From NCBI GenBank assembly GCA_043823085.1, contig JBDRBE010000004.1, positions 342,780 through 406,779 of the forward strand: a stretch of 64,000 nt of DNA, read 5' to 3'. A model generated the notes under the pieces. The model did no database searches. It was not told where the DNA came from and was given only the letters and a program-made list of their open reading frames with translations. Each line of letters starts with the position of its first letter. Position 1 is the stretch's first letter. The position numbers and the translations under genes are program-made. Positions 11,213 to 63,229 of this stretch are shown here, one piece after another. The stretch is from Candidatus Levyibacteriota bacterium. Lineage in GTDB: Bacteria > Patescibacteriota > Microgenomatia > Levybacterales > UBA12049.

Positions 11213-11878
11213 ATGTGCTATTATTTAATTATGCCTTATCGAACAACTCCACTTGTTAATAACGGTCTTTATCATATATATAACCGTGGCGTGGAAAAAA
11301 GACAAATCTTTATGAAAGACCGAGATTATCAAAGATTTCTCCAAACTCTCTACTATTATCAGTTTAGCGGTCCTAAAGCTCGTTTTTCTACGCATAAGAA
11401 ATTCAAAAATAAAAATTTTGATAAAAATCCTAAAATCGTGGAAATTATCTGTTACTGTTTAATGCCAAACCATTTTCATTTATTACTGAAACAATTAAAG
11501 GATAATGGCATTCAGGAATTTTTGAGTAAAGTAGCAAATAGTTATGCAAAATATTTCAATACTAAGTACAAACGAGTTGGTCCACTTTTACAAGGTCAAT
11601 TCAAAGCGGTAACTGTAGAAACCGATGAACAATTAGTCCATTTATCAAGATACATACACCTAAATCCATTCACAGCTGAAATTACAAAAGATTGGGAGAA
11701 CTTTCCCTACTCTTCCATTCAAGAGTTTATTGAGGATACAACTTCCAAAATTTGCGCCATTGAACAAATTTTAAATTTATTTACAAATCAAGCAGGATAT
11801 AGATCGTTTATTTCCGATAACCAATCATACGCTTTGGAACTTAGTAAAATCCAACATCTTTTAATAGACGAAGAATAA
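11213..11878 (+). mobile_element. REP-associated tyrosine transposase (RAYT; IS200/IS605 TnpA-like Y1 HUH transposase)
   Basis: HUH motif in CYCLMPNHFHLLL. Conserved YHIYNRG, SYAKYFN, RVGPLLQGQFKA and the catalytic Tyr region RYIHLNP. Flanked on both sides by REP hairpins. Confidence 0.75.
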
Positions 11879-11880
11879 TT

Positions 11881-11902
11881 GTTACACTCCCGAGGTGTAA
11901 CA
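11881..11902. repeat. REP-like hairpin GTTACAC-TCCCGAG-GTGTAAC, downstream flank of the RAYT gene
   Basis: Perfect 7-bp stem. Followed by a duplicated TTGACA..TATGAT promoter. Confidence 0.6.
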
Positions 11903-21630: not shown

Positions 21631-21650
21631 AGTTAACGCTTTTAGAAAGC

Positions 21651-21805
21651 GCGGGAAGGCACAAAATTTTCGCAGTTCGCATTTCGAGCTAACAACTTTT
21701 GATACGAATTTTTAAAACCCCCAGAGTATTATTTTGCTTTGAATTAAATCAAAACTGTTGCGAGCTGCGGAACAAGAAAACTTTTGTGCCGACCTCAGCG
21801 CGACA
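21651..21805. mobile_element. MITE-like element with terminal inverted repeats GGCACAAAATTTTCGCAGTTCGCA / TGCGAGCTGCGGAACAAGAAAACTTTTGTGCCGAC
   Basis: Terminal inverted repeats are reverse complements of each other. Full copies at 36031-36190 and 48401-48525. Solo arms at 2380-2412, 45935-45990 and 58291-58340. Confidence 0.6.
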
Positions 21806-23795: not shown

Positions 23796-23955
23796 ATCCT
23801 TTTGGATTTCTTGACGTTGGATATTCTTGATATTCTTGACCTTGACGTTTTTGACTTTTTGATATCTTGAAATCAAGAATTCAATTCTTCAATTCGTCAG
23901 CTGACGAATCAAGATCAAAAATATCGCACTTCCAACTTCTAGATATCTAATTTCA
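23796..23955. repeat. palindromic intergenic element (TTCGTCAGCTGACGAA core flanked by TTGAAGTCTTGATATCTTGA words)
   Basis: Family copy between rpsF and ssb. Confidence 0.6.
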
Positions 23956-24460: not shown

Positions 24461-25705
24461 ATGAGGCGTTTCTCAAGAGCTCAAATTTTAGCTATTATTA
24501 CCACCATTATCATTGTTGGAGCTATTCCTCTCACCGTCTTTCTCGCCCGCCAACAGCAGGAAATAAGACAAAGAGCCTCCGGAAGAGAAAATGCACACTG
24601 CAACACTGGTGATACTAATTTTCCAGGCGGATATGATTATGTTGCCGGCGGACTTGATACTTATGTCCTTGCTTCTAATGGCGCTTGCAACGAAACAGGC
24701 GCAATTCCAGGAGTCCTTGTGCATGCCGAAGCCCTTCATAATGGTCCATGCGATAGAAACAATGAAGCAAATGATTTTCCTGGTTGTACAACTAGAGAGT
24801 TCATTCCACGGACGGAAATTGATGGGGAAGGATGCGGAATGAGTGGGAATGGCAGAACTGATATACATGGAGAAACCTATCTTTTTCCTCTTAATTGCGG
24901 GCACAATAATTTTCGAATCTCCGTTATAATTTCCCCAGATTATAAATTTACAGGATGGAATATTAACGGCGGGACATGTAGCACCACTGAATTAAGTCAG
25001 GCAGAAATAGAAGTACTAAATGGCGGCGATAAAATTTTGAGAATTTTTTATCAGCCGCCGACTGCACCAACTCCAACTCCTCCAACAGCAACTGCCACCG
25101 TCACTCCTCCAACAGCAACTGCCACCCCAACAAAAACCCCTACTCCAACGCCGACTGGAGTCCTCCCAACAGCGACTCCAACGAAAACTCCTACTCCTCC
25201 AACAACTGCAACTGTGACGCCGCCGGTTTATCCAACTCCCGAACCTTTCTATGTCTCTTTCGTCTGTAACAATTGTCAAGCAGCCCAAGTTCCGACTGCA
25301 ACGCCAACGCCTACAATAGCTGTAACTTCGCCCTCTTACTATCCACCGCTACCTCCAGCTACAGCTTGGCCGAGTGCCACACGTGTTCCAACAGTAACTC
25401 GTACTCCAACGCCAACACCGACGCGCACGCCAACACCGACGCCAACTCGTGGTCCAACGCCAACACCGACGCGCACGCCAACACCCGGCCCGACCGGCAC
25501 GCCAAGGCCGTCTTACTTTGTTGTAATTACAACAAAACCAACAATAGTTATAACAAGTAAAGTTGGCGGCCCAACTCAAGCTGCTCAAGGAGGAAGTCCT
25601 GCGCCAACTCTGCCGCCGACAGGAAGCATTAGTACACCTGTTGCCATAGGAATTGGCGGAATTATCTCTGTTATAATAGGAAGTATTATTTTCTTATTGT
25701 TATAA
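24461..25705 (+). CDS. cell-surface protein with an LPXTG-type sorting signal (LPPTGS plus a hydrophobic tail), a Cys-rich domain and a long Thr/Pro linker
   Basis: N-terminal signal anchor. PTATPTPTPPTATATV repeats. C-terminus TLPPTGSISTPVAIGIGGIISVIIGSIIFLLL. Confidence 0.6.
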   Translation: MRRFSRAQILAIITTIIIVGAIPLTVFLARQQQEIRQRASGRENAHCNTGDTNFPGGYDYVAGGLDTYVLASNGACNETGAIPGVLVHAEALHNGPCDRNNEANDFPGCTTREFIPRTEIDGEGCGMSGNGRTDIHGETYLFPLNCGHNNFRISVIISPDYKFTGWNINGGTCSTTELSQAEIEVLNGGDKILRIFYQPPTAPTPTPPTATATVTPPTATATPTKTPTPTPTGVLPTATPTKTPTPPTTATVTPPVYPTPEPFYVSFVCNNCQAAQVPTATPTPTIAVTSPSYYPPLPPATAWPSATRVPTVTRTPTPTPTRTPTPTPTRGPTPTPTRTPTPGPTGTPRPSYFVVITTKPTIVITSKVGGPTQAAQGGSPAPTLPPTGSISTPVAIGIGGIISVIIGSIIFLLL

Positions 25706-33840: not shown

Positions 33841-33877
33841 TTGTTACACCTCTTGTTACACCTCGGGGGTGTAACAA
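33841..33877. repeat. REP-like hairpin TTGTTACACC-TCGGGGG-GTGTAACAA, with a partial extra half-copy
   Basis: Inverted orientation relative to the copies flanking the RAYT gene. Intergenic, between the fabZ-like gene and cysS. Confidence 0.6.
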
Positions 33878-35439: not shown

Positions 35440-36009
35440 TTATCCCGCTCCAATTGGAACTTCTACTCTTTGCTTTTTTTGCTTAACCAGTTCCGGCACA
35501 CCTTTGGCTTTTTTCTCTTTTTCTTCTTGCAATTCTTCCATTTTTTCCCTTTCCACTTTTTCGGCCGGCTTTTCTTCCGCCTGTCTTTGCGGGGTCGTTA
35601 ATTTATGATAATATTCACCATGCAATCTTTGTTTTAATGCTTCCTCTTTTTGCTTATCTTCAATCTCTTTTTGGGCGATTTGTTCTTTTGGTATTTCGGG
35701 TTTTTCCCCGCCGTATAAATGCTTGACTACGTCTTTTGTTTCCTGCGTTTGCTCAATTGGTTTTTGCGGAAGTTCGGATTTTCCTGGCGCGCTTTTTGGA
35801 CTGATCCCAACTGCCGTTTGAACAGCACCGCCGAATCCCTTTTGTCCCTGTTGCTTATTGCTTGCTACTTGTTTCTGTTGCGCTTGTGTTTTTTGTCCGG
35901 CCGCTTGGTATTTTTGTTTTCCTGTAATTTGACTACCAGCAGTTTTTATCGACTCAATCCCCTCTTCTTTTATTGTTTCCAGCGAACCACCGAGAATATT
36001 TTTTATCAT
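35440..36009 (-). CDS. hypothetical Lys/Gln/Glu-rich low-complexity protein
   Basis: 189-aa ORF. No domain recognised. Confidence 0.35.
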   Translation of the reverse strand: MIKNILGGSLETIKEEGIESIKTAGSQITGKQKYQAAGQKTQAQQKQVASNKQQGQKGFGGAVQTAVGISPKSAPGKSELPQKPIEQTQETKDVVKHLYGGEKPEIPKEQIAQKEIEDKQKEEALKQRLHGEYYHKLTTPQRQAEEKPAEKVEREKMEELQEEKEKKAKGVPELVKQKKQRVEVPIGAG

Positions 36010-36030
36010 ACTTTGTTTTATTTAGATTTT

Positions 36031-36190
36031 TGCGAGGAGGCATAAAATTTTCGCCGTTCGCATTTTGAGCTTAACATAAAAAGAACCGATTGAAAAGAGA
36101 CCTAATGAACAAATTAAGTAATTTTTAAAGAATGACTGTTGCGAACTGCGGAACAAGAAAACTTTTGTGCCGACTTCAGCAAAAATCTAG
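36031..36190. mobile_element. MITE-like element, second full copy (GGCATAAAATTTTCGCCGTTCGCATT ... GCGAACTGCGGAACAAGAAAACTTTTGTGCCGAC)
   Basis: Same terminal inverted repeats as 21651-21805. Confidence 0.6.
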
Positions 36191-36495
36191 CCCAGAACCC
36201 CTAACTTCTTTTTTGCACTTTTTGAAATTCTTTCCGGTGTCCACACAGGCTCCCAAACCAAGTCAACTTTAACCTTTTTCACTCCTTTTACTTCTTTTAT
36301 TCCCTCCTCCACCCAATCGCTAAAAGCAGTAGCAAGCGGACAGCCGGGAAAAGTTAGCGTCATTTTGACGTTAACATTGCCCGTTTTTTGCTCAATTTTA
36401 ACGCCGTAAATCAACCCCAAATCAACAATATTGATACCAAGCTCGGGGTCAATAACTTTCTTTAATTGCCTCCGAATTTGTTTCTCATTAATCAT
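36187..36495 (-). CDS. DUF59/MIP18-family Fe-S cluster assembly protein (SufT/PaaD-like)
   Basis: Segments MINEKQIRRQLKKVIDPELGINIVDLGLIY and TFPGCP are typical of the family. Confidence 0.6.
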   Translation of the reverse strand: MINEKQIRRQLKKVIDPELGINIVDLGLIYGVKIEQKTGNVNVKMTLTFPGCPLATAFSDWVEEGIKEVKGVKKVKVDLVWEPVWTPERISKSAKKKLGVLG

Positions 36496-36530
36496 TTGCT
36501 TGTTTATTCTAAATTCTTTTTACAACTCTT

Positions 36531-41521: not shown

Positions 41522-42150
41522 TACTCACTCCTTCCTTCCATGGCGCGTTGGAGAGTTAATTCGTCGGCGTATTCAATATCTGAACCGGTGGGCAGTCCCC
41601 TGCCAATTCGTGTTATTGTTAATTGTTGATTGTTGATTGTTGATTGTTGGCGAAGTTGCTTCGCCAAGTACATCGCCGTCGCCTCCCCTTCCATGGTCGG
41701 ATTCGTCGCCAGTATTATCTCGCGGACTAATGCTGAACTCGAACGCGGAACCGCGCCGACTCGCTCTAGCAGTTGGTGAATATAAATTTCATCCGGGCCG
41801 ATATTGTTGAGCGGATCAATCCTCCCATGGAGGACATGATAAACGCCGTTATACCTGCCGTTTTTTTCCAGCGCCAAAACATCCAAGGGCTCTTCAACCA
41901 CACAAATAGTTGAATCATCTCTTTTCTCATCAGAACAAATATTACAGGGGTCTTGCTCCCCTATCATAAAACATTTCGAACATAAGACCGTATCTTTTTT
42001 CAAATTGATAATAGATGAAGAAAATCTATCCAGTTCACCTTGAGGAACATGCAGTAAATAAAATGTTAGCCTCTGCGCTGTTTTTGGCCCAATTCCCGGC
42101 AGTCTTTCAAAGGACTCAATCAAATTCGCAATTGCTTTTGGGACTCTCAT
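41518..42150 (-). CDS. recR: recombination protein RecR, carrying an in-frame heptamer-repeat insertion
   Basis: HhH segment GIGPKTAQRL. C4 zinc finger CSKCFMIGEQDPCNIC. Toprim domain. (ATTGTTG)x5 at 41615-41649 encodes QQSTINNQQLT. Confidence 0.85.
   Translation of the reverse strand: MRVPKAIANLIESFERLPGIGPKTAQRLTFYLLHVPQGELDRFSSSIINLKKDTVLCSKCFMIGEQDPCNICSDEKRDDSTICVVEEPLDVLALEKNGRYNGVYHVLHGRIDPLNNIGPDEIYIHQLLERVGAVPRSSSALVREIILATNPTMEGEATAMYLAKQLRQQSTINNQQLTITRIGRGLPTGSDIEYADELTLQRAMEGRSEY
41615..41649. repeat. ATTGTTG heptamer tandem repeat (x5) inside the recR coding sequence
   Basis: Seen directly in the sequence. The same repeat is inside proS at 49581-49615. Confidence 0.7.
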
Positions 42151-42295
42151 ATTGGAATTCTTGAAGTCAGATTTCCTTGACGTTTTTGATCTTGATTCGT
42201 CAGCTGACGAATTGAAGTCTTGAAGTCTTGATATCTAGAAATCAAATTATCAAGAAATCAAGTTCAAGAAAATCCCACTTCTATCTTCAATGATT
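42151..42295. repeat. palindromic intergenic element (CAGCTG core, TCAAGAAAATCCCACTTCT terminus)
   Basis: Between recR and prs. Confidence 0.6.
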
Positions 42296-43255
42296 CTATT
42301 TTTTTATTTCTTCGGCGATAATATCAGCGACTGTTAGAATTTGCAGTTTGGGAAATCTTTTTTCTCTTGGACAATAAACCGTATCTGTCACAAAAAATTT
42401 CTTCACTGCCGATTTTTGCAAAATTTTTGGCGCACTCTTTGAAAATACTGAATGCGTCACAAAAACATAAACTTCCTTTATCCCCAATTTTCGGAGAAGT
42501 TTTGTCGCGGTAATTATTGTTCCTCCAGATGAAATCATATCATCAACAATAAACGCCCTTTTAATTTGCTTTAAACTGATATTTTCCAAACCCTCAATTT
42601 TATCTGCTGTCACTTGTCCGGTTTCCAAATTTCTGCTTTTGACAATCGCGCCAAAAAACATATCATTTAACATTTGCGAAAGCAATTTTATCCGTCTTAA
42701 TCCTCCCATATCCGGTGAAATCAAAAGGCTCTGCGAATTATTCCATTTATTTTTTTTAATTGTTTTGGCAAAAAGAGAAAGCGCAGAAAGATGAATAATC
42801 GGCATATGAAAAAGCTCGGGAATTTTAATAGAGTGGAGGTCAAAACAGATAAGTTTATCCATCCCCATCGCTTCTAAAGTTTTGATAATAACTTCCAAAG
42901 ACACCGCCTCGCCTGTTCTAAAAAGATGATCCTGCCTTTGATAACCAAGATACGGAATAACAGCGGTAATTGATTTTGCGCCGCTTCTTCTTAGAGCATC
43001 GACAATAAAAAAAAGCTCCATGTAATTTTGGTCAACAGGCGTACAGCAACTTTGCAAAACAACGCATTTTTGGTCTAAAACTTTGTCAATAATTCGAACG
43101 CGTTTTTCGCCGTCCGGGAAGATATATATTTCCAGAGGTGTTGGACTTGTGCTTAATTTACCTGCGAGTTTTTTTCCAAGTGTCTTACTGGAACTACCGC
43201 TTATAATCTTCACAACAGTTATTGTACTATGTGTCGAAAAAAAATCAATAAGCAA
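42296..43255 (-). CDS. prs: ribose-phosphate pyrophosphokinase
   Basis: PRPP synthetase motifs (DLHS, VDDMISSGGTI). Confidence 0.9.
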   Translation of the reverse strand: MLIDFFSTHSTITVVKIISGSSSKTLGKKLAGKLSTSPTPLEIYIFPDGEKRVRIIDKVLDQKCVVLQSCCTPVDQNYMELFFIVDALRRSGAKSITAVIPYLGYQRQDHLFRTGEAVSLEVIIKTLEAMGMDKLICFDLHSIKIPELFHMPIIHLSALSLFAKTIKKNKWNNSQSLLISPDMGGLRRIKLLSQMLNDMFFGAIVKSRNLETGQVTADKIEGLENISLKQIKRAFIVDDMISSGGTIITATKLLRKLGIKEVYVFVTHSVFSKSAPKILQKSAVKKFFVTDTVYCPREKRFPKLQILTVADIIAEEIKK

Positions 43256-43543: not shown

Positions 43544-43704
43544 CCCCTACTGTTTAGATTTCTTGACGTGAGATATTTTTGATATTCTTGATCTTGATTC
43601 GTCAGCTGACGAATTGAAGTCTTGAAATCTTGATATCTTGAGTTCAAGAAATCAAAAATTCAAGTTCAAGAAAATCCCACTTCTCACTTCAAAAATTCTA
43701 ATTA
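43544..43704. repeat. palindromic intergenic element, the fullest copy (TTGACGTGAGATA ... TTCGTCAGCTGACGAA ... GTTCAAGAAAATCCCACTTCTCACTTCAA)
   Basis: Between ybaB and dnaX. Confidence 0.6.
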
Positions 43705-45249
43705 CTATTTCTGTTTTAGTGAAATTGAAACGTCGATTGGGCTTCCTATAATTTGTTTACAAACCTTTTCTATAATATCACGAGTTTTTCTTTCTTCCAA
43801 GCGCTCTTTATGAAACTTATATCCGGCTTCTATGGCAAGATTTTTCCCGTCAAAACTTTTTAAAGTACATCCTCTTAGAACTCCTGCCACCGAATGATTG
43901 TAGGGCTTGACCAAATCAATAAGCTGTTTTAGGACATTTTTTTCGTCAAATATTCCGGGTTGATTAATCGCAGGATTCGATAACACTTCTTCTTTCTCCA
44001 CCTTTTTGTCGCGGAAAGACGCAGAACCGGACGCCAAACTACGCTGACTTTGAACATCTTGGTTTTGATTATTAGTTTCGCGTTTTTCTGCATTTTGTTC
44101 CGCATTCTTCTGCGCCTGTATTCCCCACTCCACAATTGCAATTTCAAGCGGCAATTGCGGCAGGACCGCATATTTTATTTCTCCATACGCCTTTGCCAAA
44201 ATTTCAATCAAAGACTTAATTTCATTAAGTTCTAAATTATAAGTTACAAGTCCTAAGTTATTTTCTACACCGACTTTTGATAATAAATTTAAATGCAGTT
44301 GGGAAATCATTTCTGATATAAAATATTTAACATCTATCCCCTCTTTTGTAATTCTTGATACCAATTCTAAGCTTTTTTTAGTGTCTTTTTTAGAAAGATA
44401 GTCCAACATCTTTGATACTTGATACTTGATACTTGATACTTGATATTTCTCCTCCACCAATTCTTTGGTAATCTTTTTTTTATTGGACATTAAAACAAGT
44501 TCTTCTAAGATTTTTACACCGTCGCGAAAACTGCCGTCGGACAATGAGGCAATATATTTTAGTTCTTCTTTTTCTATTGGAATATTTTCCTCTTTGGCAA
44601 TCCGCGAGAATGAACGCAGAAGTTCTTCTTGGGTCGCTCTCTTAAAAGAAATATGAAAACAACGCGAAAGGATAGTCGCCGGAACTTTTTGCGGTTCCGT
44701 GGTACAAAGAATAAAAACAGCATGACTCGGCGGCTCTTCTAAAGTTTTTAAAAGCGCATTAAAAGCTTCTGTGGTCAACATGTGAACTTCATCAATAATG
44801 TAAACTTTTTTAGAAGCCAGAGCAGGCGAAAGCCGTATTTTCTCACGCAAATCTCTTATCTCATCAATCCCTCTATTTGATGCTCCGTCTATTTCCAAAA
44901 CATCTAAATTTGTGCCATTAGTAATAGATTTACATTGCAAGCATTTATTACAAGGCTCAATACTAGCATCTAGCGTATACCTGCCTGCCGGCAAGGCAGG
45001 GCGTTTAGCGTTTAGTTTTTTTTCTTTTGAACTAGACACTAATTTATTAGACGCTAGACGCTCGCAATTGAGGATTTTTGCGACAATTCTGGCGGTTGAA
45101 GTTTTTCCAAGTCCTTTAGGTCCGGTAAAAAGAAAAGCGTGTTGTTCTGATTTTTGATCGCCGGAAAAAACAGCGGTTAATTTTTCTCTAATTTCTTGAC
45201 TATCAAGATCTTTAATTTTTTGCGGCCGATATTTTCGATAATAAACCAT
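43705..45249 (-). CDS. dnaX: DNA polymerase III subunit gamma/tau, carrying two in-frame repeat insertions
   Basis: AAA+ Walker A GPKGLGKTS and sensor motifs. (CTTGATA)x5 at 44410-44447 encodes SIKYQVSSIKYQVS. An ACGCTA-word block at 45001-45070 lies inside the Zn module, between NCE and EPCNKCLQC. Confidence 0.85.
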   Translation of the reverse strand: MVYYRKYRPQKIKDLDSQEIREKLTAVFSGDQKSEQHAFLFTGPKGLGKTSTARIVAKILNCERLASNKLVSSSKEKKLNAKRPALPAGRYTLDASIEPCNKCLQCKSITNGTNLDVLEIDGASNRGIDEIRDLREKIRLSPALASKKVYIIDEVHMLTTEAFNALLKTLEEPPSHAVFILCTTEPQKVPATILSRCFHISFKRATQEELLRSFSRIAKEENIPIEKEELKYIASLSDGSFRDGVKILEELVLMSNKKKITKELVEEKYQVSSIKYQVSKMLDYLSKKDTKKSLELVSRITKEGIDVKYFISEMISQLHLNLLSKVGVENNLGLVTYNLELNEIKSLIEILAKAYGEIKYAVLPQLPLEIAIVEWGIQAQKNAEQNAEKRETNNQNQDVQSQRSLASGSASFRDKKVEKEEVLSNPAINQPGIFDEKNVLKQLIDLVKPYNHSVAGVLRGCTLKSFDGKNLAIEAGYKFHKERLEERKTRDIIEKVCKQIIGSPIDVSISLKQK

Positions 45250-45893: not shown

Positions 45894-46183
45894 AATAAAA
45901 AACACCCCCTCCGAAAATACTACCAATCTTCAATATCTCAATAAAGGCGAGGAAACAAATTTTCGCAAGTTGCGAAGAATCATCAAAGACTTTCAAGGTT
46001 ATATGAGATACTAATAACGCAACCAATATCCAATAATCTAAAAAGAACCGGCGACAAGAAAATTTTGTTTCCGAGCCGTTTAAATTTCTCTATATATGAC
46101 CTGTGCTAGATGTCTCGTTCTATTCTACTCCAAGAAGTCAGCGGTGTAAATAGCCCGAAGTATTTTCTTTTAATGTGAGACAG

Positions 46184-47608: not shown

Positions 47609-48676
47609 TTATATTTTTTCTAAAACTTGAATAATCTGTTTTAAAGTTAATCTTGATGCTCTCATTTTTGGGTTTTTGGCACTGCCGTTTAGAAGCATTT
47701 TCTTTGATACGTGCAAAAACCACGATGCTTGCGGATCCATTTTTTTGAATTTTTCATAAACCAAAGTCAGATCTGCTCCTTTTTCTCCGCTGACACTGGG
47801 CCGCGCTTTTATCCTTACATATCCTTTTCTCGGATCGCGTCTTACAACTATTGCATACCCCATTTTTTGCGCCAATTTTATAACCGAGTCATTAACTGTC
47901 TCAACACCCAAACCTTTCCCCCATCTTGTCTTAAACTCAATTCCTTTCTCGGCGATTTCTTTTTCGGCCCAAACTCTGTTTTCAAAATCATGTAAAATTG
48001 CATCAAGGCACTGCGAAATAAAATCAACATAAAAATTATCATCATTTGGCTTTTCAAGTTTCAACCCGTCTAAAATTCCTAAAATTGCAAAATCATGATA
48101 AAAAGCCGTAGGATTTTCCCACAAAGCTTCTCTAAAATGATCAATATCTGTCACAACCTTTACAATTCTACCTATGGCTTCGCTCTTGTCTTTCATTCTC
48201 TCGCTCTCCGAACTTTGAACTTTGCCCTGAACTTGTCGGATGGATGAATTTTGAACTTTCTTGATGTAGTCCCAAACCAAACTGGATGCGCTGATGCTTT
48301 CATCGGAAGTTAAATGATGGTCCAAAGGTCCAAGTCCAGTATCAACATGAATCATTTCGTTGTCATCAATCTTCTCGATAGCATCTAAAGAAGAATTTTT
48401 GCCGCGGGGAGGCACAAAATTTTCGCTGTTCGCATCTTGTCGAGCGCCAATGCGTTGATGAACGCCTTGAGACTCATCGCGAGACAACTGCGGAACAAGA
48501 AAATTTTCGTGCCGACCTAAGCGGCTCAAACCCTCTTTTCCTCTCACTCGCAACCTTTCTCCCGATAAAACAAATCTCACTTCTGCATTTTCCCATCCTG
48601 CTAAAAATCTTTTTGTCAACCAAACCGAGCAAATCGCATCTAAATCAGGAGAAGTATGGGTAACAACAATTTTCAT
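47609..48676 (-). CDS. DHH family phosphoesterase (NrnA-like) carrying an in-frame MITE insertion
   Basis: DHH motif I HTSPDLDAICS and the DHH motif in VDTGLGPLDHH. A 125-nt MITE copy at 48401-48525 is translated between them. A GAACTTTG-repeat insert lies at about 48181-48260. Confidence 0.6.
   Translation of the reverse strand: MKIVVTHTSPDLDAICSVWLTKRFLAGWENAEVRFVLSGERLRVRGKEGLSRLGRHENFLVPQLSRDESQGVHQRIGARQDANSENFVPPRGKNSSLDAIEKIDDNEMIHVDTGLGPLDHHLTSDESISASSLVWDYIKKVQNSSIRQVQGKVQSSESERMKDKSEAIGRIVKVVTDIDHFREALWENPTAFYHDFAILGILDGLKLEKPNDDNFYVDFISQCLDAILHDFENRVWAEKEIAEKGIEFKTRWGKGLGVETVNDSVIKLAQKMGYAIVVRRDPRKGYVRIKARPSVSGEKGADLTLVYEKFKKMDPQASWFLHVSKKMLLNGSAKNPKMRASRLTLKQIIQVLEKI
48401..48525. 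mobile_element. MITE-like element copy inside the DHH phosphoesterase reading frame
   Basis: GGCACAAAATTTTCGCTGTTCGCAT ... CTGCGGAACAAGAAAATTTTCGTGCCGAC. 125 nt, which is about 42 codons with no stop. Confidence 0.6.
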
Positions 48677-48897
48677 ATACTGTAAGTATACAAAAAATTC
48701 AAACTCTTGACAAACTTTTAAAAATGTTACAATATATTATTATACCGAATTTTTGAGGTGGGAAGTGGGATTTTCTTGAACTTGATTTCTTGATAATTTG
48801 ATTTCTAGATATCAAGATTTCAAGACTTCAATTCGTCAGCTGACGAATCAAGATCGAAGACGTCAAGGATATCTAACTTCAAGAATTCCAAATAATT
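48677..48897. repeat. palindromic intergenic element plus overlapping divergent promoters
   Basis: GGTGGGAAGTGGGATTTTCTTGAACTTGA ... TTCGTCAGCTGACGAA. TTGACA on the plus strand at 48706. On the minus strand, TTGTCA-N17-TATACT-N6-ATG serves the DHH gene. Confidence 0.55.
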
Positions 48898-49371
48898 ATG
48901 GACCCGAAAACTGCCCAATTAGATCCTAAACTGAAAGAAGCCTACGAACGCGTTATGGGCACAGCCGTTCCCAAAACGCAAACTCCCCAAGCTCCTCAAA
49001 CTCCCCAACCTCTAACGCCAGTGAAGGAGGCCTCCATTCCTACGGCTAATACCAAAGGAGTTATCATACCCCCTGTCCAAAATCCTTCAGTTGCGCCCGT
49101 TGCTCCAAATACTCCAACACCAGGAATTATTACTAATTCGGGAATAACAACTCCTTCTGTTAAAACTCCGGTTTCTCCATCTATAAATAAAGGAACAAGT
49201 TTTAGCGCAACTGCTGGCAAAGGGGGGTCAGGAGGATTTCCCAGAATTTTAATTTTTCTTTTTCTGCTGATCTTTTTTGTAGGATACGGTATATTTTGGA
49301 TTAAATTCTTTAAACTCTCTGTCCCTTATCTTTCCGACCTTGTCATCCCCGGCCTTGGCAAAGTCTTTTAA
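48898..49371 (+). CDS. hypothetical Pro/Thr-rich protein with a C-terminal TM anchor
   Basis: 157 aa. PQTPQ repeats. C-terminus FPRILIFLFLLIFFVGYGIFWI. Confidence 0.4.
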   Translation: MDPKTAQLDPKLKEAYERVMGTAVPKTQTPQAPQTPQPLTPVKEASIPTANTKGVIIPPVQNPSVAPVAPNTPTPGIITNSGITTPSVKTPVSPSINKGTSFSATAGKGGSGGFPRILIFLFLLIFFVGYGIFWIKFFKLSVPYLSDLVIPGLGKVF

Positions 49372-51079
49372 TTACTTCGTCTATTGTTAACATTTCTGTT
49401 TCGCTTTTAGCTCTTTCTTTGCATTCAATTTTATCACCGGTTTTGCCTGAAATTACTAAACGTATTGGACAACCGATTAAATCGCAGTCGGCGAATTTTT
49501 CCCCTGCCGAAATATCTCTATCGTCATAAAAAACCTCAATCCCCGCATCTTGCAATTTTTCATAAATTTCATCCGCCATTTTGTTGATTGTTGATTGTTG
49601 ATTGTTGATTGTTACGAGGTGTACCAAGTATGGTGCAACCGCTTCCGGCCACTTAATCCCTTTATCATCAGAGTGAACTTCAACAACCGCCGCCATTGTC
49701 CTTGCAATTCCAATTCCATAACAACCCATGTAATATGGTTTTTCTTTTCCGTTTTCGTCTGTAAAAGTGGCGCCTTTCATTTTTGAAGAATAGTGAAATC
49801 CAAGCTGAAAAATATTTCCAACCTCAATCCCCCGTTTTTCTATCAGTTTTTGACCGTTTGGCGCGGCGTATCCTGCTTTTGCAAGCTTGAACTCATAAAA
49901 CTTTTCAGGCTTGGGCAAGTCCCTGCCAAAATTTACATTAATATTGTGAATATTGGTTTTATTCGAACCCATTTCAAAATTCTTTCTTCCTCTCATTGAC
50001 TCATCCATAAAAATTCTGACATCTTTTGGTAAATTCAAAAGCCCGGCATATCCCACTTCTGCTCCTGTTATTTTTCTGACAGTCTCGGCCGACGCAAGCT
50101 TTAAAGAATAAACTTTGGCAACATGCGAGAGCTTAGTTTCATTTATCTCAAAATCTCCTCTGACTGCCGCGGCAATAACTTTTCCATTCTCGTCTTCAAA
50201 GAGAAGTGTTTTTGTGGTTTGTTCAACCGGAATATCAAGAAACTTCGCCAGCTCAAAAACTCCAATAATCCCTTTGCCCTCAACTTCTTCCATCGGCCTC
50301 TCTTCTTCACCGCTTTCTATTTGGTTTAATGAAAGTTTTGCAACGTCTTCATGGACACAATAACTTCCATCCTCTGTTGTCAAATACCTGCTTTCTCCGC
50401 TTTCATGTTCCACCACAAATTCATGACAATATTCCCCCCCGATATAACCGTTATCCGATTCAACAATAATAGTTTTCAACCCCAAACGCTCAAAAATTTT
50501 AGTGTAAGTTTTTTTCATTTTTTCATACTCTTTTTTGAAATCTTCCTCTGTTGTATGAAAAGAATATCCGTCTTTCATCACAAATTCTTTAACTCGCAAA
50601 AGCCCCCCCCGCGGCCGCAGTTCATCCCGAAACTTGGTAGAAAATTGGTAGAGATTAAAAGGCAAATCTTTGTAGCTTATCTGAAATTTACGAACTAAAT
50701 CAACCAGCATTTCCTCTGCTGTCCCACCCAAAACAAATTCCATTTCGTTTCTGTCTTTAACTTTTACAAGTTCAAAACCAACCGAATTTGTGCGGTTTGT
50801 TTCTTTCCATAAAGCAACCGGATGAAGAATTGGTGCTGTGATTTCCTGCGCACCTGCTTTATCCATTTCAACTTTTATAATATCTTGAATTTTCTGGTGG
50901 ACTTTTTGGCCAAGCGGTAAAAAATAATAACGCCCTGCTGTACTTTCGCGGATAAATCCTGCCTTATAAAGAAGTTTATGGGAAGTAATAACCGCATCCT
51001 TTGGCGCTTCCCGAATTGTTCTTCCAAACAGTTTTGAATATCTCATAACAAAAGTATAGCACAAATCCGCGATTGTCAT
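49343..51079 (-). CDS. proS: prolyl-tRNA synthetase (bacterial type), carrying an in-frame heptamer-repeat insertion
   Basis: Class II motifs and an anticodon-binding C-terminus. (TTGTTGA)x4 at 49581-49615 encodes TINNQQSTIN in the linker. Confidence 0.9.
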   Translation of the reverse strand: MTIADLCYTFVMRYSKLFGRTIREAPKDAVITSHKLLYKAGFIRESTAGRYYFLPLGQKVHQKIQDIIKVEMDKAGAQEITAPILHPVALWKETNRTNSVGFELVKVKDRNEMEFVLGGTAEEMLVDLVRKFQISYKDLPFNLYQFSTKFRDELRPRGGLLRVKEFVMKDGYSFHTTEEDFKKEYEKMKKTYTKIFERLGLKTIIVESDNGYIGGEYCHEFVVEHESGESRYLTTEDGSYCVHEDVAKLSLNQIESGEEERPMEEVEGKGIIGVFELAKFLDIPVEQTTKTLLFEDENGKVIAAAVRGDFEINETKLSHVAKVYSLKLASAETVRKITGAEVGYAGLLNLPKDVRIFMDESMRGRKNFEMGSNKTNIHNINVNFGRDLPKPEKFYEFKLAKAGYAAPNGQKLIEKRGIEVGNIFQLGFHYSSKMKGATFTDENGKEKPYYMGCYGIGIARTMAAVVEVHSDDKGIKWPEAVAPYLVHLVTINNQQSTINKMADEIYEKLQDAGIEVFYDDRDISAGEKFADCDLIGCPIRLVISGKTGDKIECKERAKSETEMLTIDEVIKRLCQGRG

Positions 51080-52604: not shown

Positions 52605-53606
52605 TTACTTCTTCTTCACCGGATGTCTTCCAAATTGCCAGCGCATGGCGGCAACCACTTTGTTACGAAATCCGTTTGGTGATATTTCTTTATCTTTATC
52701 TGAATTATCGCGAACGCAAACTGATGCGTTAAGGACTGGCGTCTCAACACCCATTTTCTTTGCCATTTCAACAGTCCAGTGCCCCTCCCCTTTTGTTTTT
52801 CCAGAACCTCCGCCTGAACCAATGACCGATGAAATATCCGAAAGGTTTTGGTCTTTTTTTAATTCATTTAAAGTCCAGCCAACTAAACGCGATTCTATTA
52901 TTGAACCGTTATTGTAAATTCGAAAGACTTCGCTAAGGTCATATTTAAACGGAGCATATTTTAAAATCGCCGCGCCTTCGCCAATTGCCTCCATCATGCC
53001 ATATTCAATTCCGTTGTGAATTGTCTTGGCAAAATGTCCAGCTCCAATTGGCCCCAAATGCGCGTAGCCGTCTTTTCTGGCAGCAGATTTTAGAATCGGC
53101 TCAATTCTTTTGAAGTCTTCTTTTTGCCCTCCGACCATAATACATGCGCCATTTCTTGCTCCTTCTATTCCTCCGCTTATTCCGCAGTCCATATAATGAA
53201 TTTGTTTTTTTGCTAAAGTTTTTGCACGCCGCAAAGTATGTGTGTAAAGCGAATTTCCTCCGTCAATTATCAAATCGCCAGAGGATAATTTATCCATCAA
53301 CTCGTTTAAAACCGCATCAACGGCCTCTCCAGCGCTAACCATCAGCCAGATTATTCGTGGGGTCTTTAAAGTTTTAACTAATTCTTCTAAGGTTTTTGTT
53401 GTTGTTAAATTCCCACCATTTGAATTATGAATTATGAATTTTGAATTATGAATTTTTTTATTTTTCCATAATTCCTGATTCCTAATTCTTAATTCTTCTA
53501 TCGATTCTTTTGATCGATTCCACGCCACAATTTCCATCCCCTCTTCCAAAAGATGCAAAACCATTGCCTTTCCCATTTTGCCCAAACCAATAAATCCAAT
53601 CTTCAT
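52605..53606 (-). CDS. gnd: 6-phosphogluconate dehydrogenase-like NAD(P)-binding protein (short form), carrying an in-frame repeat insertion
   Basis: N-terminus MKIGFIGLGKMGKAM is a Rossmann fold. C-terminal 6PGDH domain. AATTCATAATTCA-type repeats at 53421-53500 encode RIRNQELWKNKKIHNSKFIIHNSNGG. Confidence 0.65.
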   Translation of the reverse strand: MKIGFIGLGKMGKAMVLHLLEEGMEIVAWNRSKESIEELRIRNQELWKNKKIHNSKFIIHNSNGGNLTTTKTLEELVKTLKTPRIIWLMVSAGEAVDAVLNELMDKLSSGDLIIDGGNSLYTHTLRRAKTLAKKQIHYMDCGISGGIEGARNGACIMVGGQKEDFKRIEPILKSAARKDGYAHLGPIGAGHFAKTIHNGIEYGMMEAIGEGAAILKYAPFKYDLSEVFRIYNNGSIIESRLVGWTLNELKKDQNLSDISSVIGSGGGSGKTKGEGHWTVEMAKKMGVETPVLNASVCVRDNSDKDKEISPNGFRNKVVAAMRWQFGRHPVKKK

Positions 53607-54679: not shown

Positions 54680-56115
54680 TTTCTCCCATCCTTCTGGATT
54701 AATTCATTTGCCTCTTTTGGTCCCCACGTCCCTGATTCATAATTCATAATTCCTGATTCCCGTCTCTTCCATCCTTCCAGAATTTTAGTGATAAACTCCC
54801 ACGAACTGTCAAGCTCGTCAGAGCGGTTAAAAAGCATCTGGTCACCAACAAAAATGTCCAAAAGAACTTTTTCGTATGCATTTGTACCTTTTGTATGAAA
54901 TTCGTCTTCGTAATTAAAATTCATATTTACTGTTCCCAACGACACTTTTGAACCCGGCTTTTTTGCGATAACGCGAAGACTAATTCCTTCATTCGGTTGA
55001 ATTCTGATAGTCAAAACATTTCCGGTCTCTGGACAACCATATTCTTTAAATAAAACATGGCAAGTTTGAATAAAAACTATAGAAATTTCCACAGTGCTTT
55101 TTGGCATTTTCTTCCCTACTCTTGCATAAAACGGCACATTTTTAAATCTTTCCGAGTCAACATATAATTTCATTGCAACAAAGGTTTCGGTATTTGATTT
55201 CGGATCAACATCCTTTTCTTTTAGATAGCCTTCATATTGTCCTCTTGCCACAAACTTATCAACCTCATTAGATTCTATGGAGCGGATTGCTTTAATTGCA
55301 TTTGCCCTAACATCACGCATATCGTCTCTTGTAAAGCTTCTTGGCTGTTCCATGGCAACTGCCGCTACCATTTGCATAATGTGATTTTGACCCATGTCCC
55401 TTAACGTCCCAACTCCGTCAAAAAACTTTCCTCTTCTTTCTATTCCCTTTTCTTCTGCAAGTGTGATTTGCACATGATCAATAAAATTTTTGTTCCAGAC
55501 CGGTTCAAAAATTCCGTTGGCAAATCTAAAAGCAATCATGTTCTGCACCGTCTCTTTTCCTAAATAATGATCAACCCTAAAAATCTGTCTTTCTTCAAAG
55601 ATCTCCGAAAGCCTTTTATCAAGCGCTCTCGCAGTCTCTAGGTCTTTACCAAAGGGTTTTTCAATAATAATTTTTGTCCACTTATTGCTTCCCTGTCCGC
55701 ACCCTTCGGAAAGTTTTGAATGATTAAGATGCTCTAAAATTTCCGGATAATTGGCTGGCGGCGTTGCCAAATAAAAAAGGCGCGTAACACAAGCGCCAAT
55801 TTCTTTATCAAATCCTTCCAGTTTTTTAATTAATTCTTCGTAATCTTCCTTTTCCTCAAATTTTCCTTGTTGGTAAAAAATATTTTTTGAAAACGCGTCC
55901 CAATCACTCTGACGATATGTATTATTAGAGTGTAAAAATTCTTTTAGAAGACTATGAAACTCGCTGTTTGTGAACTCTCTTCTTGCAAAACCAATGAGAT
56001 AAAATTTTTCCGGTAATTTTTTTTCTTGAAAGAGTTTAAAAAGAGAAGGAAGAAGTTTAGTCCGCATCAAATCCCCTGTTGCCCCAAAAATAATCATTGC
56101 AAATGGAGAATTCAT
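54667..56115 (-). CDS. zwf: glucose-6-phosphate 1-dehydrogenase
   Basis: NADP-binding GATGDL. Active-site segment DHYLGKE. Motif EKPFG. Small in-frame insert IMNYES from AATTATGAATTATGAAT near the C-terminus. Confidence 0.85.
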   Translation of the reverse strand: MNSPFAMIIFGATGDLMRTKLLPSLFKLFQEKKLPEKFYLIGFARREFTNSEFHSLLKEFLHSNNTYRQSDWDAFSKNIFYQQGKFEEKEDYEELIKKLEGFDKEIGACVTRLFYLATPPANYPEILEHLNHSKLSEGCGQGSNKWTKIIIEKPFGKDLETARALDKRLSEIFEERQIFRVDHYLGKETVQNMIAFRFANGIFEPVWNKNFIDHVQITLAEEKGIERRGKFFDGVGTLRDMGQNHIMQMVAAVAMEQPRSFTRDDMRDVRANAIKAIRSIESNEVDKFVARGQYEGYLKEKDVDPKSNTETFVAMKLYVDSERFKNVPFYARVGKKMPKSTVEISIVFIQTCHVLFKEYGCPETGNVLTIRIQPNEGISLRVIAKKPGSKVSLGTVNMNFNYEDEFHTKGTNAYEKVLLDIFVGDQMLFNRSDELDSSWEFITKILEGWKRRESGIMNYESGTWGPKEANELIQKDGRKWIQ

Positions 56116-56962: not shown

Positions 56963-58192
56963 TTATGGACCAAAAATATTTTTGCCGGAAATTAATCTGG
57001 TTAAATCATGAAAAGTTATTAAGGCAATTAAAGTCAAAAGTAATGCCATACCAATCGCGTGAGAGTAGCTTTCGAATTTGGCCGGAACTCTTCGCCGAGT
57101 TGCTACTTCTATCAGAATAAAAAACAATCTTCCACCGTCCAAAGCCGGAATTGGCAAGATATTAAAAAAAGCAAGCGAAATCGACAATATTCCGGCGAGA
57201 TTTAGAACCTGTAAAATTTTTTCTTTAAGATCGGGTATTTTAACAATATTTCCAACCAAAGAGTATATTCCTACCGGACCGGCAACGCTTTGGGAAATAG
57301 GCTCGGCGGTTTTTTCTTTTATCGAAATACCAATTAGCTGTCCCATGATGTTGAAATTGTAAGCCAGAAGATTTAATGGATGAGTAAATCCGGAAAATAT
57401 TTTTTGAGGAACAGTTTTATAATCTAAAACTACCATTGAAACCGGAAAAAAACTAATTCCGATTGCTCCCTCGTTTTTGGGAGGATTTATTCTTGGTGTA
57501 ATTTTTGCAAAATAATTTTTATTATTTTTTGCATCCTGCCATGCAACTGTAATTTCTTTTCCTTTATTTTTACTAATAATTTCGGCAAAATAATTCACAT
57601 CATTAACTTTTTGTCCATTTATAGAAAGAATCTTTGAAAAAGATTTAATTCCCGCAATTTCTGCCGGCGAGTTTTTGGCAACATCGGCAATAATTATATC
57701 CGAAGAGTTAGTTTGAGAAACGGCAAAAAATTTATGATCGCCCAAAAGCGGGAGCTGGGTTTTAAAATCGGAAATAAATAAAAATGCGTAGAAAATAACT
57801 GCGGCAAGAACTGTATTCATAAAAACGCCGGCCACTACAATCACCGCTCTTTGTCCGACCGGTCTTGCAAAAAACGCACGGTCTTTATTCTTAATTCTTA
57901 ATTCCTGATTTTTAATTCCCGGCCTGCCGCTACCGGCCTCATCCTCGCCATAAAGTTTTACAAATCCGCCAATCGGCAGCCAATTAATTGAATAAATAGT
58001 CTCGCCCTTTTTTATGCCAAACGCTCTTGGAGGAAGTCCAAACCCAAATTCTTCAACTTTTATCCCTAATTTTTTTGCTACAAAAAAATGCCCAAACTCG
58101 TGAATCAACACTAAAATCGAGAGAATAACCAAAAAAACAACGGCCGTAATTATCATAAATTTTGACTTATATATCGCGGGGAGCCTTTTCAT
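56963..58192 (-). CDS. rseP: RseP-type site-2 protease (M50) with a PDZ domain
   Basis: HEFGH zinc motif in TM1. PDZ domain. LDGG motif. In-frame insert IKNQELRIKNKD from the TAATTCTTAATTCCTGATT repeat at 57886-57921. Confidence 0.8.
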   Translation of the reverse strand: MKRLPAIYKSKFMIITAVVFLVILSILVLIHEFGHFFVAKKLGIKVEEFGFGLPPRAFGIKKGETIYSINWLPIGGFVKLYGEDEAGSGRPGIKNQELRIKNKDRAFFARPVGQRAVIVVAGVFMNTVLAAVIFYAFLFISDFKTQLPLLGDHKFFAVSQTNSSDIIIADVAKNSPAEIAGIKSFSKILSINGQKVNDVNYFAEIISKNKGKEITVAWQDAKNNKNYFAKITPRINPPKNEGAIGISFFPVSMVVLDYKTVPQKIFSGFTHPLNLLAYNFNIMGQLIGISIKEKTAEPISQSVAGPVGIYSLVGNIVKIPDLKEKILQVLNLAGILSISLAFFNILPIPALDGGRLFFILIEVATRRRVPAKFESYSHAIGMALLLTLIALITFHDLTRLISGKNIFGP

Positions 58193-58340
58193 GAGGTGAC
58201 GTCTTCACTAGAGTCGCCGAAGGCGACCGTATCCCGAGTCCCGCCGATGAGGCGGGACGGAGGGACGCTTGCGTTTGAAGACTCGCCGAACTGGAAAGGC
58301 GACCTAAGCGATATTCCCTGAACAAGAAAACTTTTATACC
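58193..58340 (-). promoter_or_regulatory. GC-rich structured 5' leader upstream of rseP, with promoter TGGTATAAAAG
   Basis: In gene orientation: GTCCCGCC-TCATC-GGCGGGAC (8-bp stem) and GTCGCC-TTCG-GCGAC (UUCG tetraloop). Preceded by a solo MITE arm and a TATAAA -10. Confidence 0.3.
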
Positions 58341-62073: not shown

Positions 62074-62213
62074 GGGCTAGTTTTTAGAATCTTTGATGTG
62101 AGAAGTGGGATTTTCTTGAACTTGACCGTTTTGATATCTAGATATCTAGAATTCAAGAAATCGAAGATTCAAGATCAAAAATGTCAAAAATATCTCACGT
62201 CAAAAATTCTAGT
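62074..62213. repeat. palindromic intergenic element, a copy lacking the CAGCTG core
   Basis: Termini TAGAATCTTTGATGTGAGAAGTGGGATTTTCTTGAACTTGA and ATATCTCACGTCAAAAATTCTAG. Aligns with the reverse complement of the 43544 copy. Confidence 0.55.
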
Positions 62214-62744
62214 TCATCTCTCCAATTCCAAAAACTTATATTTATGTCCTTCCCACTTTCCTTCTTTTTCAAAAACTATTTTTTTGAATATTGATTCGTA
62301 TTCCGGGAAAAAAGTGTCGGCGTCTTTAACAGCATCTACAATTGTTAAATATAATTTATCCGTTAAACCAATCGCCTGCTGATAAATCTGTCCCCCCCCG
62401 ATAATAAATATTTCTTTTTTATTGTCATGCCAAACTTGTTTCGGCATCTCACGAGATTCTGAAGCCATTTTCAACGCTTCATCCAAAGAACTCGTAATTT
62501 TTAGCTTCGCAAGGCGTCGCCTTGCGAAGCTAGAATCTCGCGAAATAACTATGTTCGTCCTATTGGGAAGAGGATGGCCAATCGACTCGAAGGTTTTTCG
62601 CCCCATTATAATAGTATGGCCACATGTTTTTTCGCGAAACCGCTTCATATCTTCGGGGATTTGCCACAACAATTTATTATCGTTCCCAATTCCTCTGTCT
62701 TTTGAAATCGCTACGATGATGCTGATTTTTGAATTATGAATCAT
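62214..62744 (-). CDS. folA: dihydrofolate reductase, carrying an in-frame palindrome insertion
   Basis: DHFR motifs (IVAISKDRGIG, LLW, MGRKTFESIG). The 29-bp palindrome at 62503-62531 encodes SSFARRRLAKLKI. Confidence 0.8.
   Translation of the reverse strand: MIHNSKISIIVAISKDRGIGNDNKLLWQIPEDMKRFREKTCGHTIIMGRKTFESIGHPLPNRTNIVISRDSSFARRRLAKLKITSSLDEALKMASESREMPKQVWHDNKKEIFIIGGGQIYQQAIGLTDKLYLTIVDAVKDADTFFPEYESIFKKIVFEKEGKWEGHKYKFLELER
62503..62531. repeat. 29-bp palindrome AGCTTCGCAAGGCGTCGCCTTGCGAAGCT inside folA. Sister copy at 4082-4110.
   Basis: Seen directly in the sequence. GC-rich in an AT-rich gene. Confidence 0.6.
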
Positions 62745-63229
62745 AAATTATGAATTTTTGAACTTTTAATCAAACCGTTTGAATCGCTAAAAAACTTAAT
62801 TGCATCCTCCACCGTTTGTTTAACATTTGCCAATAATTGATATTTATCTAAATCTGACGTTTTTACCCATTCCGGAATTGTTTCTTCCGATTCTTTTATT
62901 TCCCCTGAAAATTTTAAACAAAGAAAAACATGCCAGGAAAAATTTACAACTCCCTGTTTTCTTTTAATTGCCGCATAATAAATATTATTAGGATAATCAA
63001 CAAATGAAATTCCTGTTAACCCCGTTTCTTCTTTTAATTCTCTAATTGCCGTATCTTTTTCTGTTTCACTCTCATCAACTTTTCCGCCGGGCAAACCATA
63101 AATTCCTGTCAAATGTCCTGCTTTTTGGGTATGTCTTACAAGCAAAACTTTATCATCTTTGATAAGTAATGCCGCCGCTGATAAAACAATATTTTTAAGT
63201 TTTTGATTTTTCGTAGAAGCCTCCTGCAA
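62741..63229 (-). CDS. NUDIX hydrolase
   Basis: Nudix box GGKVDESETEKDTAIRELKEETGL. Confidence 0.7.
   Translation of the reverse strand: MQEASTKNQKLKNIVLSAAALLIKDDKVLLVRHTQKAGHLTGIYGLPGGKVDESETEKDTAIRELKEETGLTGISFVDYPNNIYYAAIKRKQGVVNFSWHVFLCLKFSGEIKESEETIPEWVKTSDLDKYQLLANVKQTVEDAIKFFSDSNGLIKSSKIHNL

Follow-up and report, generated by a model that had tools for sequence, protein, structure and literature searches.

The window analysed here is a 64,000-nt stretch of contig JBDRBE010000004.1 of a Candidatus Levyibacteriota bacterium, from the tiny, uncultured Levybacteria. On its minus strand, the gene for a DHH-family phosphoesterase (the DHH gene) is followed in order by HIT, an open reading frame (ORF) of 206 aa, a B-type hairpin element, rpsU, ybeY, and dnaX. 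A further element, of A type, lies within the DHH gene itself and is the main subject of this report. The bit scores given below for the elements were obtained with R1, a covariance model built from 18 short-form copies of the A-type element.

47609-48676, minus strand: DHH-family phosphoesterase gene, an intact ORF of 355 aa with a weak Pfam DHH match.
48401-48525, minus strand: A-type hairpin element in the DHH ORF, 125 nt, codons ~50-92; R1 82.3 bits, E 9e-16.

The 125 nt are read through in frame and leave the 355-aa ORF intact, as the initial annotation had described. The DxD, D, and DHH residues (D11, D13, D112, and D119-H120-H121) are invariant in an alignment of 25 orthologs, and every residue invariant across the alignment is present in the window protein. 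The Pfam score of the protein (21.9 bits) is below the cut-off (28.1 bits), a low score that is common to orthologs without inserts as well. An identical protein has been deposited under the annotation "hypothetical protein" from a Candidatus Levyibacteriota metagenome-assembled genome (MAG). The orthologs are usually ~295-310 aa long, and the segment from FVPAGERL to IEKIGxDEVIHVDTG varies among the 25 from a few residues up to ~70. An AlphaFold2 model with the ortholog alignment as input has a mean predicted local distance difference test score (pLDDT) of 79. Residues 45-96, which include the peptide LGRHENFLVPQLSR, are the only long segment with pLDDT below 50, and lie between two confidently modelled strands, strand 2 at 32-36 and strand 3 at 100-103. 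A Foldseek search with the model gave weak matches, all in the DHH superfamily, the best being family II pyrophosphatase, NrnA, and RecJ (E from 7.5e-4). The insert is therefore modelled as a roughly 43-aa surface loop, probably disordered, in an enzyme that appears functional. None of the other aligned DHH orthologs has the A-type peptide. Searched by word index, the 46-aa insert peptide gave no usable protein match, and HMMER, run in full over 1.84 billion representative proteins, matched only an unrelated repeat protein.

The hairpin follows a plan common to subfamilies A, B, C, and D and to minimal G+C hairpins. Read on the strand of the upstream gene, the outermost layer is a closing helix of 4-7 bp that ends with a G-C and then a C-G pair, its outer bases differing from site to site. 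Next comes the junction, usually (T)GAGG-TC in the 5' arm and TC-CCC in the 3' arm, in which GG is base-paired to CC and the two TC dinucleotides lie opposite one another as a tandem TC/TC mismatch (GA/GA on the opposite strand). A 5-bp stem and a single bulged base follow, then the palindromic stem AAAATTTTC/GAAAATTTT, the core GTTC-C-GCA/TGC-GAAC with single bulged C residues, and a variable tip. The interior is specific to each subfamily and has conserved single-base bulges. In the DHH copy, the closing helix is GCCGC/GCGGC, the junction TTAGG-TC/TC-CCC, and the 5-bp stem GGCAC/GTGCC, and the inner part consists of the same AAAATTTTC/GAAAATTTT stem followed by the core. Its apical region (~48436-48486) is G+C-rich and free of stop codons. 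Very high stability is predicted for the hairpin (−53 to −56 kcal/mol, z ~ −4.5 to −5.4).

The positions of two alignment columns should be noted. In the A-type copies (alignment A2), C or T in the 5' arm (column 41, CAG[C/T]TCG) correlates perfectly with G or A in the 3' arm (column ~89, GCTC[G/A]AAATGCG), and no helix register pairs the two columns. The correlation could stem from a tertiary contact, from an alternative fold, or from common ancestry. A K-turn, a hammerhead, and other small ribozymes, considered from the junction sequence, were rejected since there is no 3-nt bulge beside G.A pairs and no Rfam match.

The outer part of the element recurs at the DHH loop of distant relatives. 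The outside loci compared with the window are designated by L numbers. A socket of the form GCGC-TGAGG-TC ... TC-CCC-GCGC is located at the same loop in orthologs that are only 55-65% identical, and it holds five different interiors of 38 to ~140 nt. The L050 version, AGCGC-TGAGG-TC-(18-nt G+C hairpin)-TC-CCC-GCGC, is 38 nt long and is translated as KSAEVA...SPR, and that of L051 has the L050-type socket with another G+C hairpin (50 nt). L009 carries a C-type interior (113 nt; R1 28 bits), and L043 carries two D-type interiors, one at the main loop and one at a second loop. The window gene has the A-type interior (125 nt), and the closing helix of its socket is longer by one C-G pair. Only the 3' half (TCCCGCGCAATGCG) is found in L010, though this locus is close to L009 (HIT 89% identical), indicating a deletion. 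L022 and several further DHH orthologs have no socket.

A similar arrangement is observed in DnaX. A C-type copy of 113 nt occupies a loop of DnaX in L010, and the DnaX genes of L025 and L038 share the socket and the 5-bp stem of L010 around a different 65-nt version; the window DnaX has no copy at that loop. The six measured socket-to-socket lengths (125, 38, 50, 113, 113, and 65 nt) are all 2 mod 3, and all in-ORF versions seen keep the frame without stop codons. Such uniform lengths make sense only if the segments are translated and frame-breaking versions are removed by selection. One further candidate, an in-ORF copy in the 485-aa ORF of L027, turned out to be merely an upstream extension of the dnaB ORF call, with no insertion.

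What is conserved at the DHH loop is a palindromic DNA socket read in different phases, not a protein motif. The initial annotation had taken the insert to be lineage-specific, a view that conserved protein sequence in orthologs would have overturned. The A-type interior indeed occurs in no other ortholog, and no protein motif is conserved across the segment; the socket DNA, however, is conserved at the same loop in distant orthologs, and insertion at this site is not lineage-specific. The ortholog comparison shows that the DHH site is old, not a fresh insertion; its interior has probably been exchanged between lineages, giving the minimal, C, D, and A types.

Other inserts at these proteins may be mentioned here. 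In alignment A3, the DHH orthologs P0005, P0039, P0098, P0002, and P0072 have additional inserts resembling repeats, both at the main DHH loop and at two others (for example, ARGPVAPSS...LRALDGTPS), and the DHH ortholog in L044 contains an inverted repeat, AAGTGAACGCCGAC/GTCGGCGTTCAGTT, at 311-402. These sequences suggest that hairpin families exist beyond the four named. In DnaX (window 43705-45249, minus strand; L010 239-1816; L025), a variable insertion that differs in each genome lies between NCE and PCNKC in the N-terminal ATPase region, where Pfam splits the domain; this loop may be another acceptor of repeat-derived sequence.

The remaining copies in the window are as follows.

36027-36185, minus strand: A-type element, long form, between a DUF59 FeS-assembly gene (36190-36501) and an ORF (35440-36009); R1 76.1 bits; closing helix TTTTTGC/GCAAAAA.
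21649-21801, minus strand: A-type element, long form, between an S41 peptidase gene (21809-23065) and an HtrA-like protease gene (20476-21630); R1 75 bits; closing helix GCGC/GCGC.
2379-2510, minus strand: complete B-type element between an M17 aminopeptidase gene and efp; 30.1 bits, E 3.5e-4; closing helix TGGC/GCCA, TC/TC junction, stem GAGAA/TTCTC.
45943-46080, minus strand: complete B-type element upstream of rpsU; 29.2 bits, E 5.4e-4.
58173-58312, minus strand: complete D-type element downstream of frr; closing helix ATCGC/GCGAT, junction TTAGG-TC/TC-CCC.
58316-58340, minus strand: A-type remnant, a 5' arm (GGTATAAAAGTTTTCTTGTTCAGGG) that abuts the D-type element.

The two intergenic A-type copies with ~35-nt arms had been placed at 21651-21805 and 36031-36190 by the initial annotation, and they do lie between one gene's stop codon and the following start codon on the minus strand, at nearly those positions. 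The three A-type copies have the same orientation and nearly identical ~35-nt complementary arms, with divergent middles (~50% identity). A 24-nt arm pattern has three matches in the window and none in dinucleotide shuffles, in agreement with a dispersed inverted-repeat family. R1 detects these three copies (75-82 bits) and two more regions, 2372-2518 and 45936-46086 (30.1 and 29.2 bits, E ~4e-4). The supposed solo arms near efp (2380-2412) and rpsU (45935-45990) are thus the ends of complete elements of the diverged subfamily B. The third supposed solo arm, near frr (58291-58340), is a true remnant (58316-58340) that adjoins the complete D-type element. The GGTAT stem of the remnant is identical to that of the complete copy downstream of frr in L020/L041, and the D-type interior is related to both inserts in the L043 DHH ortholog. 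The mechanically called ATG (58192) of the M50 peptidase ORF at 56963-58192 (minus strand) lies inside the D-type element; the Pfam match starts at residue 20, and a later ATG at ~58157 is the likelier start. The proposal that the arms carry promoter-like sequence was not borne out, as no sigma-70-like site was found in them and the promoter-like matches in the region do not exceed those in shuffles (12, compared with 7.8 +/- 2.5).

Outside the window, the arm pattern was found at one locus in GTDB representative genomes, in a Microgenomates MAG, and at 41 loci in metagenomes, ~30 of them with both arms. The A-type elements have two size forms, short (~90-110 nt) and long (~140-165 nt), and several metagenome contigs hold second or third R1 copies, always on the same strand within a contig. 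A scan of viral contigs gave one chance match that lacks the second arm. With Rfam 15, the window gave only tRNA-Leu at the gathering threshold, and scans of two elements at E up to 10 gave noise only, including a Ricks_sRNA10 line of 13.2 bits against a gathering score of 97. No description of such repeats was found in the literature on these phyla.

Base pairing is maintained between genomes. The 5-bp stem covaries (GGCAC/GTGCC, GGAAC/GTTCC, GGGAC/GTCCC, GGTAC/GTACC, and others), with 44 cells altered on both sides compared with 9.7 in shuffles (none of 500 as high), and one of its pairs shows all four Watson-Crick types. The closing helices differ even among copies of one genome that share inner stems. 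At 23 independent sites, the longest complementary run averages 5.65 bp between an element's own flanks and 3.80 bp between swapped flanks (0/20000 permutations as high). Direct repeats in the own flanks (4.04 nt, against 3.67 nt in swapped flanks; p = 0.05) are not clearly enriched at the same 23 sites. The stem covariation and the site-specific closing helix disfavour a plain terminal-inverted-repeat reading.

Most copies lie just past the stop codon of a housekeeping gene, at a density of several per 10-60 kb, and in most loci a co-oriented stop codon precedes the element by 2-25 nt. In L011, L012, and L035, the element is antisense to both neighbouring genes. All six copies in the window that are listed above or lie in the DHH gene as complete elements are on the minus strand, the G-rich strand along the whole window, and in 27 of 28 loci the element strand has a positive GC skew. 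The skew at third codon positions is positive in genes of either orientation, including those of L011, L012, and L035; therefore, the polarity tracks the G-rich strand, not transcription. The G-rich strand is leading-strand sequence and so the template for lagging-strand synthesis.

Comparison of syntenic loci reveals both persistence and turnover. L010 and L022 share the window synteny and have A-type copies at both the DHH/HIT and HIT/rpsU gaps. The B-type copy at 45943-46080 is at the syntenic position of the A-type HIT/rpsU copies in L009, L010, L022, and L029. At the DNA level, the HIT/rpsU element is 96-99% identical, compared with 75-79% for the adjacent HIT gene (L009, L022, and L029); the copies are therefore old and constrained. 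Elements are also gained, lost, truncated, and replaced: L010 and L022 carry an element at the DHH/HIT site, where the window and L050 have none; at the HIT/rpsU site, L022 has A type, the window has B type, and L051 has just an empty gap of 18 nt; and a truncated A element stands beside a D element at the frr site.

In a Pfam scan of ~59 window ORFs, all are housekeeping genes except for one Y1_Tnp gene, and no DDE transposase or integrase-type gene was matched among them. The exception is as follows.

11213-11878, plus strand: Y1 HUH (RAYT-like) gene, 221 aa; Y1_Tnp 31.3 bits.
11175-11902, plus strand: IS200-like unit, the Y1 gene between 21-nt hairpins GTTACAC-N7-GTGTAAC.

The best NCBIfam match of the Y1 protein is NF047646 (REP-associated tyrosine transposase) at 48.4 bits, under the cut-off of 80, and the protein contains the motifs NHFH (HUH-like) and YIHLNP. 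The flanking hairpins are imperfect at 11181-11203 and perfect at 11881-11901, and a third copy is inverted at 33855-33875. Each flank also contains a strong promoter-like TTGACA-N17/18-TGGTATAAA/TGGTATGAT. Homologs number in the thousands in Microgenomates; four homolog contigs have unrelated neighbourhoods and the same pair of flanking hairpins. R1 detects no element at these four loci, and tblastn of the Y1 gene against the compared loci found no homolog. The gene with its hairpins looks like an independent IS200-like unit. A role of this gene as the mobiliser of the repeats was considered and is unsupported, as it is associated with its own hairpins only; paralogs elsewhere in the genome could still play that part.

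The explanation we favour, with somewhat better than even confidence, is that the segment in the DHH gene belongs to a superfamily of 40-165-nt hairpin-forming repeats specific to Levybacteria/Microgenomates, that the DHH site is old, that its interior has been swapped, and that the repeats behave like REPINs or Rickettsia palindromic elements (RPEs). Such resident hairpin DNA would fold as a single strand at the replication fork and spread or recombine in that form, and the conserved junction may act as a recognition or exchange point. The DHH interior would have been exchanged at the old site by an active process at the junction, not by ordinary recombination or template switching.

Several observations weigh against this explanation. 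The exchange of interiors is deduced from the comparison of orthologs, and none was caught between near-identical genomes. Translation of the DHH insert is argued from the integrity of the ORF. Only three loci separate polarity from gene direction. Wobble counts in the core are equivocal (12 A.C and 8 G.U), with one conserved U.G on the gene-sense strand, and for 23 of 31 copies the predicted folding energy is better on the opposite strand. No transposase or recombinase was linked to the elements by Pfam among the ~59 ORFs scanned in the 64-kb window, and the Y1 gene, in five genomes, is always flanked by its own hairpins and never by A-D elements. The antisense strand had at one stage been considered to be the folded one, and this idea was dropped when an A.C excess from an early hand count shrank to 12 versus 8 on the model-based alignment.

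A bolder version is possible, though we consider it clearly less probable than the favoured explanation: the repeats might be a previously undescribed single-strand DNA element composed of socket and cargo, in which the junction is the exchange site for a replication-fork enzyme and interiors are inserted into, or swapped between, pre-existing hairpins. If this is true, the exchange reaches essential genes and repeatedly remodels protein surface loops.

The elements could instead be cis-acting RNAs of the host, namely intercistronic stabilisers or processing or termination hairpins co-transcribed with the upstream gene, with the in-ORF copies accidental. The position of most copies 2-25 nt past a co-oriented stop codon, the strong covariation, the conservation above that of adjacent coding DNA, the U.G pair conserved in the gene sense, and the occurrence of wobble pairs in some closing helices are all compatible with RNA. 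However, the elements of L011, L012, and L035 are antisense to both neighbours and yet on the G-rich strand, and the gene-sense junction is a destabilising TC/TC mismatch. There is neither a consistent T-tract after the hairpin nor a terminator-like call spanning the whole element, Rfam has no match, and hairpins of −50 kcal/mol sit within intact ORFs of essential type. We regard this explanation as unlikely.

Folded single-strand recombination sites resembling attC, at whose junction a site-specific recombinase exchanges the interior module or neighbouring DNA, are a less probable alternative again. The resemblance consists of an outer box that varies but stays complementary and whose inner dinucleotide is conserved, a spacer that is partly unpaired, extrahelical bases within the inner box, a variable tip, and a total of 40-165 nt, together with location at gene 3' ends, polarity relative to replication, and one socket with different interiors at orthologous sites. 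Against this, the RYYYAAC/GTTRRRY boxes are absent, the window scan gave no integrase-type gene, and the elements are bordered by housekeeping genes in syntenic order instead of reshuffled cassettes.

Slightly weaker still is the label given by the initial annotation, a classical miniature inverted-repeat transposable element (MITE), that is, a deletion derivative of a DDE-type insertion sequence moved in trans by cut-and-paste, with a recent DHH copy. The elements are small and dispersed in many copies, have ~35-nt terminal inverted repeats and no coding capacity, and vary in presence between genomes. The direct repeats in own flanks nevertheless barely exceed those in swapped ones, and the outermost bases are the least conserved part and are complementary instead of duplicated. 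In addition, the middles have fallen to ~50% identity between near-identical arms, orthologous copies are retained across species with the DHH site common to distant orthologs, and no DDE transposase was matched among the ~59 window ORFs scanned. With no target-site duplication, inverted complements as flanks, and no cognate transposase in that scan, the label is not supported.

That the element has inactivated the DHH gene, or is removed from the transcript before translation, is very improbable: the great stability of the hairpin and the Pfam score under the gathering cut-off would fit, but the ORF is of full length with all residues invariant in the 25 orthologs kept, insert-free orthologs score equally low, and six in-ORF copies in two genes are all 2 mod 3 without stops, which matters only if they are translated.

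Other repeats are also observed in the window. A second, unrelated family of ~150 nt (84-92% identity in the best pairs) is located at 42152-42301, 43554-43703, and 48747-48892 (inverted), with further copies at 23848-23925, 5883-6012, and 62078-62211. Its TTCAAGAA/TCTTGA-like units recur with a period of 8 nt on either side of a palindrome, CGTCAGCTGACG, at the centre, and the copies lie in gene-upstream regions; the copy at 48747-48892 is directly upstream of the DHH gene, before a divergent ORF (48898-49371). Simple intergenic (TTGTTGA)n-like and (GAATTAT/TGAATTA)n-like repeats are found near gene ends at 8427-8459, 41616-41648, and 49581-49613 and at 53421-53465, 54725-54758, 57877-57910, and 62723-62767. 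A 37-nt sequence that is palindromic internally, TAGCTTCGCAAGGCGACGCCTTGCGAAGCTAAAATTT, is present at 4081-4117 and, inverted and 97% identical, at 62496-62532, 58 kb apart; one copy is just upstream of tRNA-Leu (4181-4266). In the ORF at 24461-25705 (plus strand), which has no Pfam match, imperfect 12/24-nt tandem repeats at 25111-25509 encode a Thr/Pro-rich tract.

Returning to the hairpin repeats, ~1.3% of the 64 kb in this very small genome of the candidate phyla radiation (CPR) consists of structured repeats that are better conserved than some genes. This load suggests either a function or a very stable genomic parasitism. After the RPEs of Rickettsia, this would be a second independent case of palindromic DNA repeatedly turned into protein sequence, and the remodelling of the same DHH and DnaX loops in different lineages would make its effect on protein evolution comparable across lineages. 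The closing helix, the junction, and the replication-strand polarity provide concrete handles toward the enzyme and the mechanism. On the practical side, the repeats mislead start-codon calls, as in the M50 ORF, and inflate "hypothetical" insertions in protein alignments of these phyla.

We compared the family with known systems. The initial annotation had regarded a translated insertion of this type as unusual. In-frame palindromic insertions are, however, the hallmark of Rickettsia RPEs (Ogata et al. 2000, according to the summary in PMC10969869), and they recur here in DHH and DnaX of several genomes: in-frame, stop-free palindromes are found in the DHH genes of the window, L009, L043, L050, and L051 and in dnaX of L010 and L025. 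In PMC10969869, RPEs are described as palindromic repeats of ~100-150 bp in several families, both intergenic and in frame inside housekeeping genes, with the inserted peptide tolerated where the fold permits and with hosts of small, reduced genomes. The position of the DHH insert in the AlphaFold2 prediction is likewise one that the fold would tolerate. The present family differs in its host, the unrelated phylum Patescibacteria/CPR, and in that the outer socket is at the same codon position in distant orthologs with the interior exchanged; the Levybacteria repeat also has a site-specific closing helix and a replication-strand polarity.

REPs and REPINs with their RAYTs are long-lived, vertically inherited hairpin repeats without target duplications (PMC3116915, PMC3337134). 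The Levybacteria repeats share fixed, long-lived sites, vertical inheritance, many copies per genome, and the lack of target duplications; hairpins are kept at orthologous sites, and the genome has a RAYT-like HUH Y1 gene. That gene, however, borders a different 21-nt hairpin and not A-D elements, so that a single-copy RAYT gene with cognate repeats was not found. REPINs are doublets of short REPs and are described as extragenic, whereas each Levybacteria repeat is one long hairpin in which junction and bulges are conserved, and some copies are intragenic. The IS200/IS605 elements similarly have no target-site duplication, need imperfect hairpins, and show a polarity tied to the lagging-strand template. 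Their two subterminal hairpins differ from each other, and insertion occurs 3' of a set tetra- or pentanucleotide, whereas here one hairpin spans the whole element, and no association with TnpA was shown.

Integron attC sites (PMC5371416) are alike in that structure is conserved over sequence: the outer box is complementary, the spacer unpaired, some bases extrahelical, and the terminal structure variable. They also occur at gene 3' ends, and strand matters. In contrast, the present elements have no R'/R'' core sequences, their outer boxes reading NNNNGC ... GCNNNN instead of RYYYAAC ... GTTRRRY, and their inner sequence is far better conserved than in typical attC sites; the window Pfam scan gave no integrase, and the neighbours are syntenic housekeeping genes instead of cassette arrays. 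ERIC, Correia, and BOX repeats are also small, are transcribed within operons, and are occasionally intragenic with open reading frames (PMC10969869). Correia elements differ in having target-site duplications and a DDE-type linkage (PMC10969869), and none of the three has the arrangement of a socket plus an exchangeable interior. With MITEs, the family shares short, non-coding, dispersed repeats with terminal inverted repeats; its copies are flanked by inverted complements instead of target-site duplications, and no parent insertion sequence or transposase with the same ends was found among the ~59 ORFs scanned in the 64-kb window. On the features tested, the family fits none of RPE, REPIN, IS200/IS605, and attC. 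It is absent from Rfam and new in candidate-phylum bacteria, and it is best filed with the REP/RPE kind of resident hairpin repeat.

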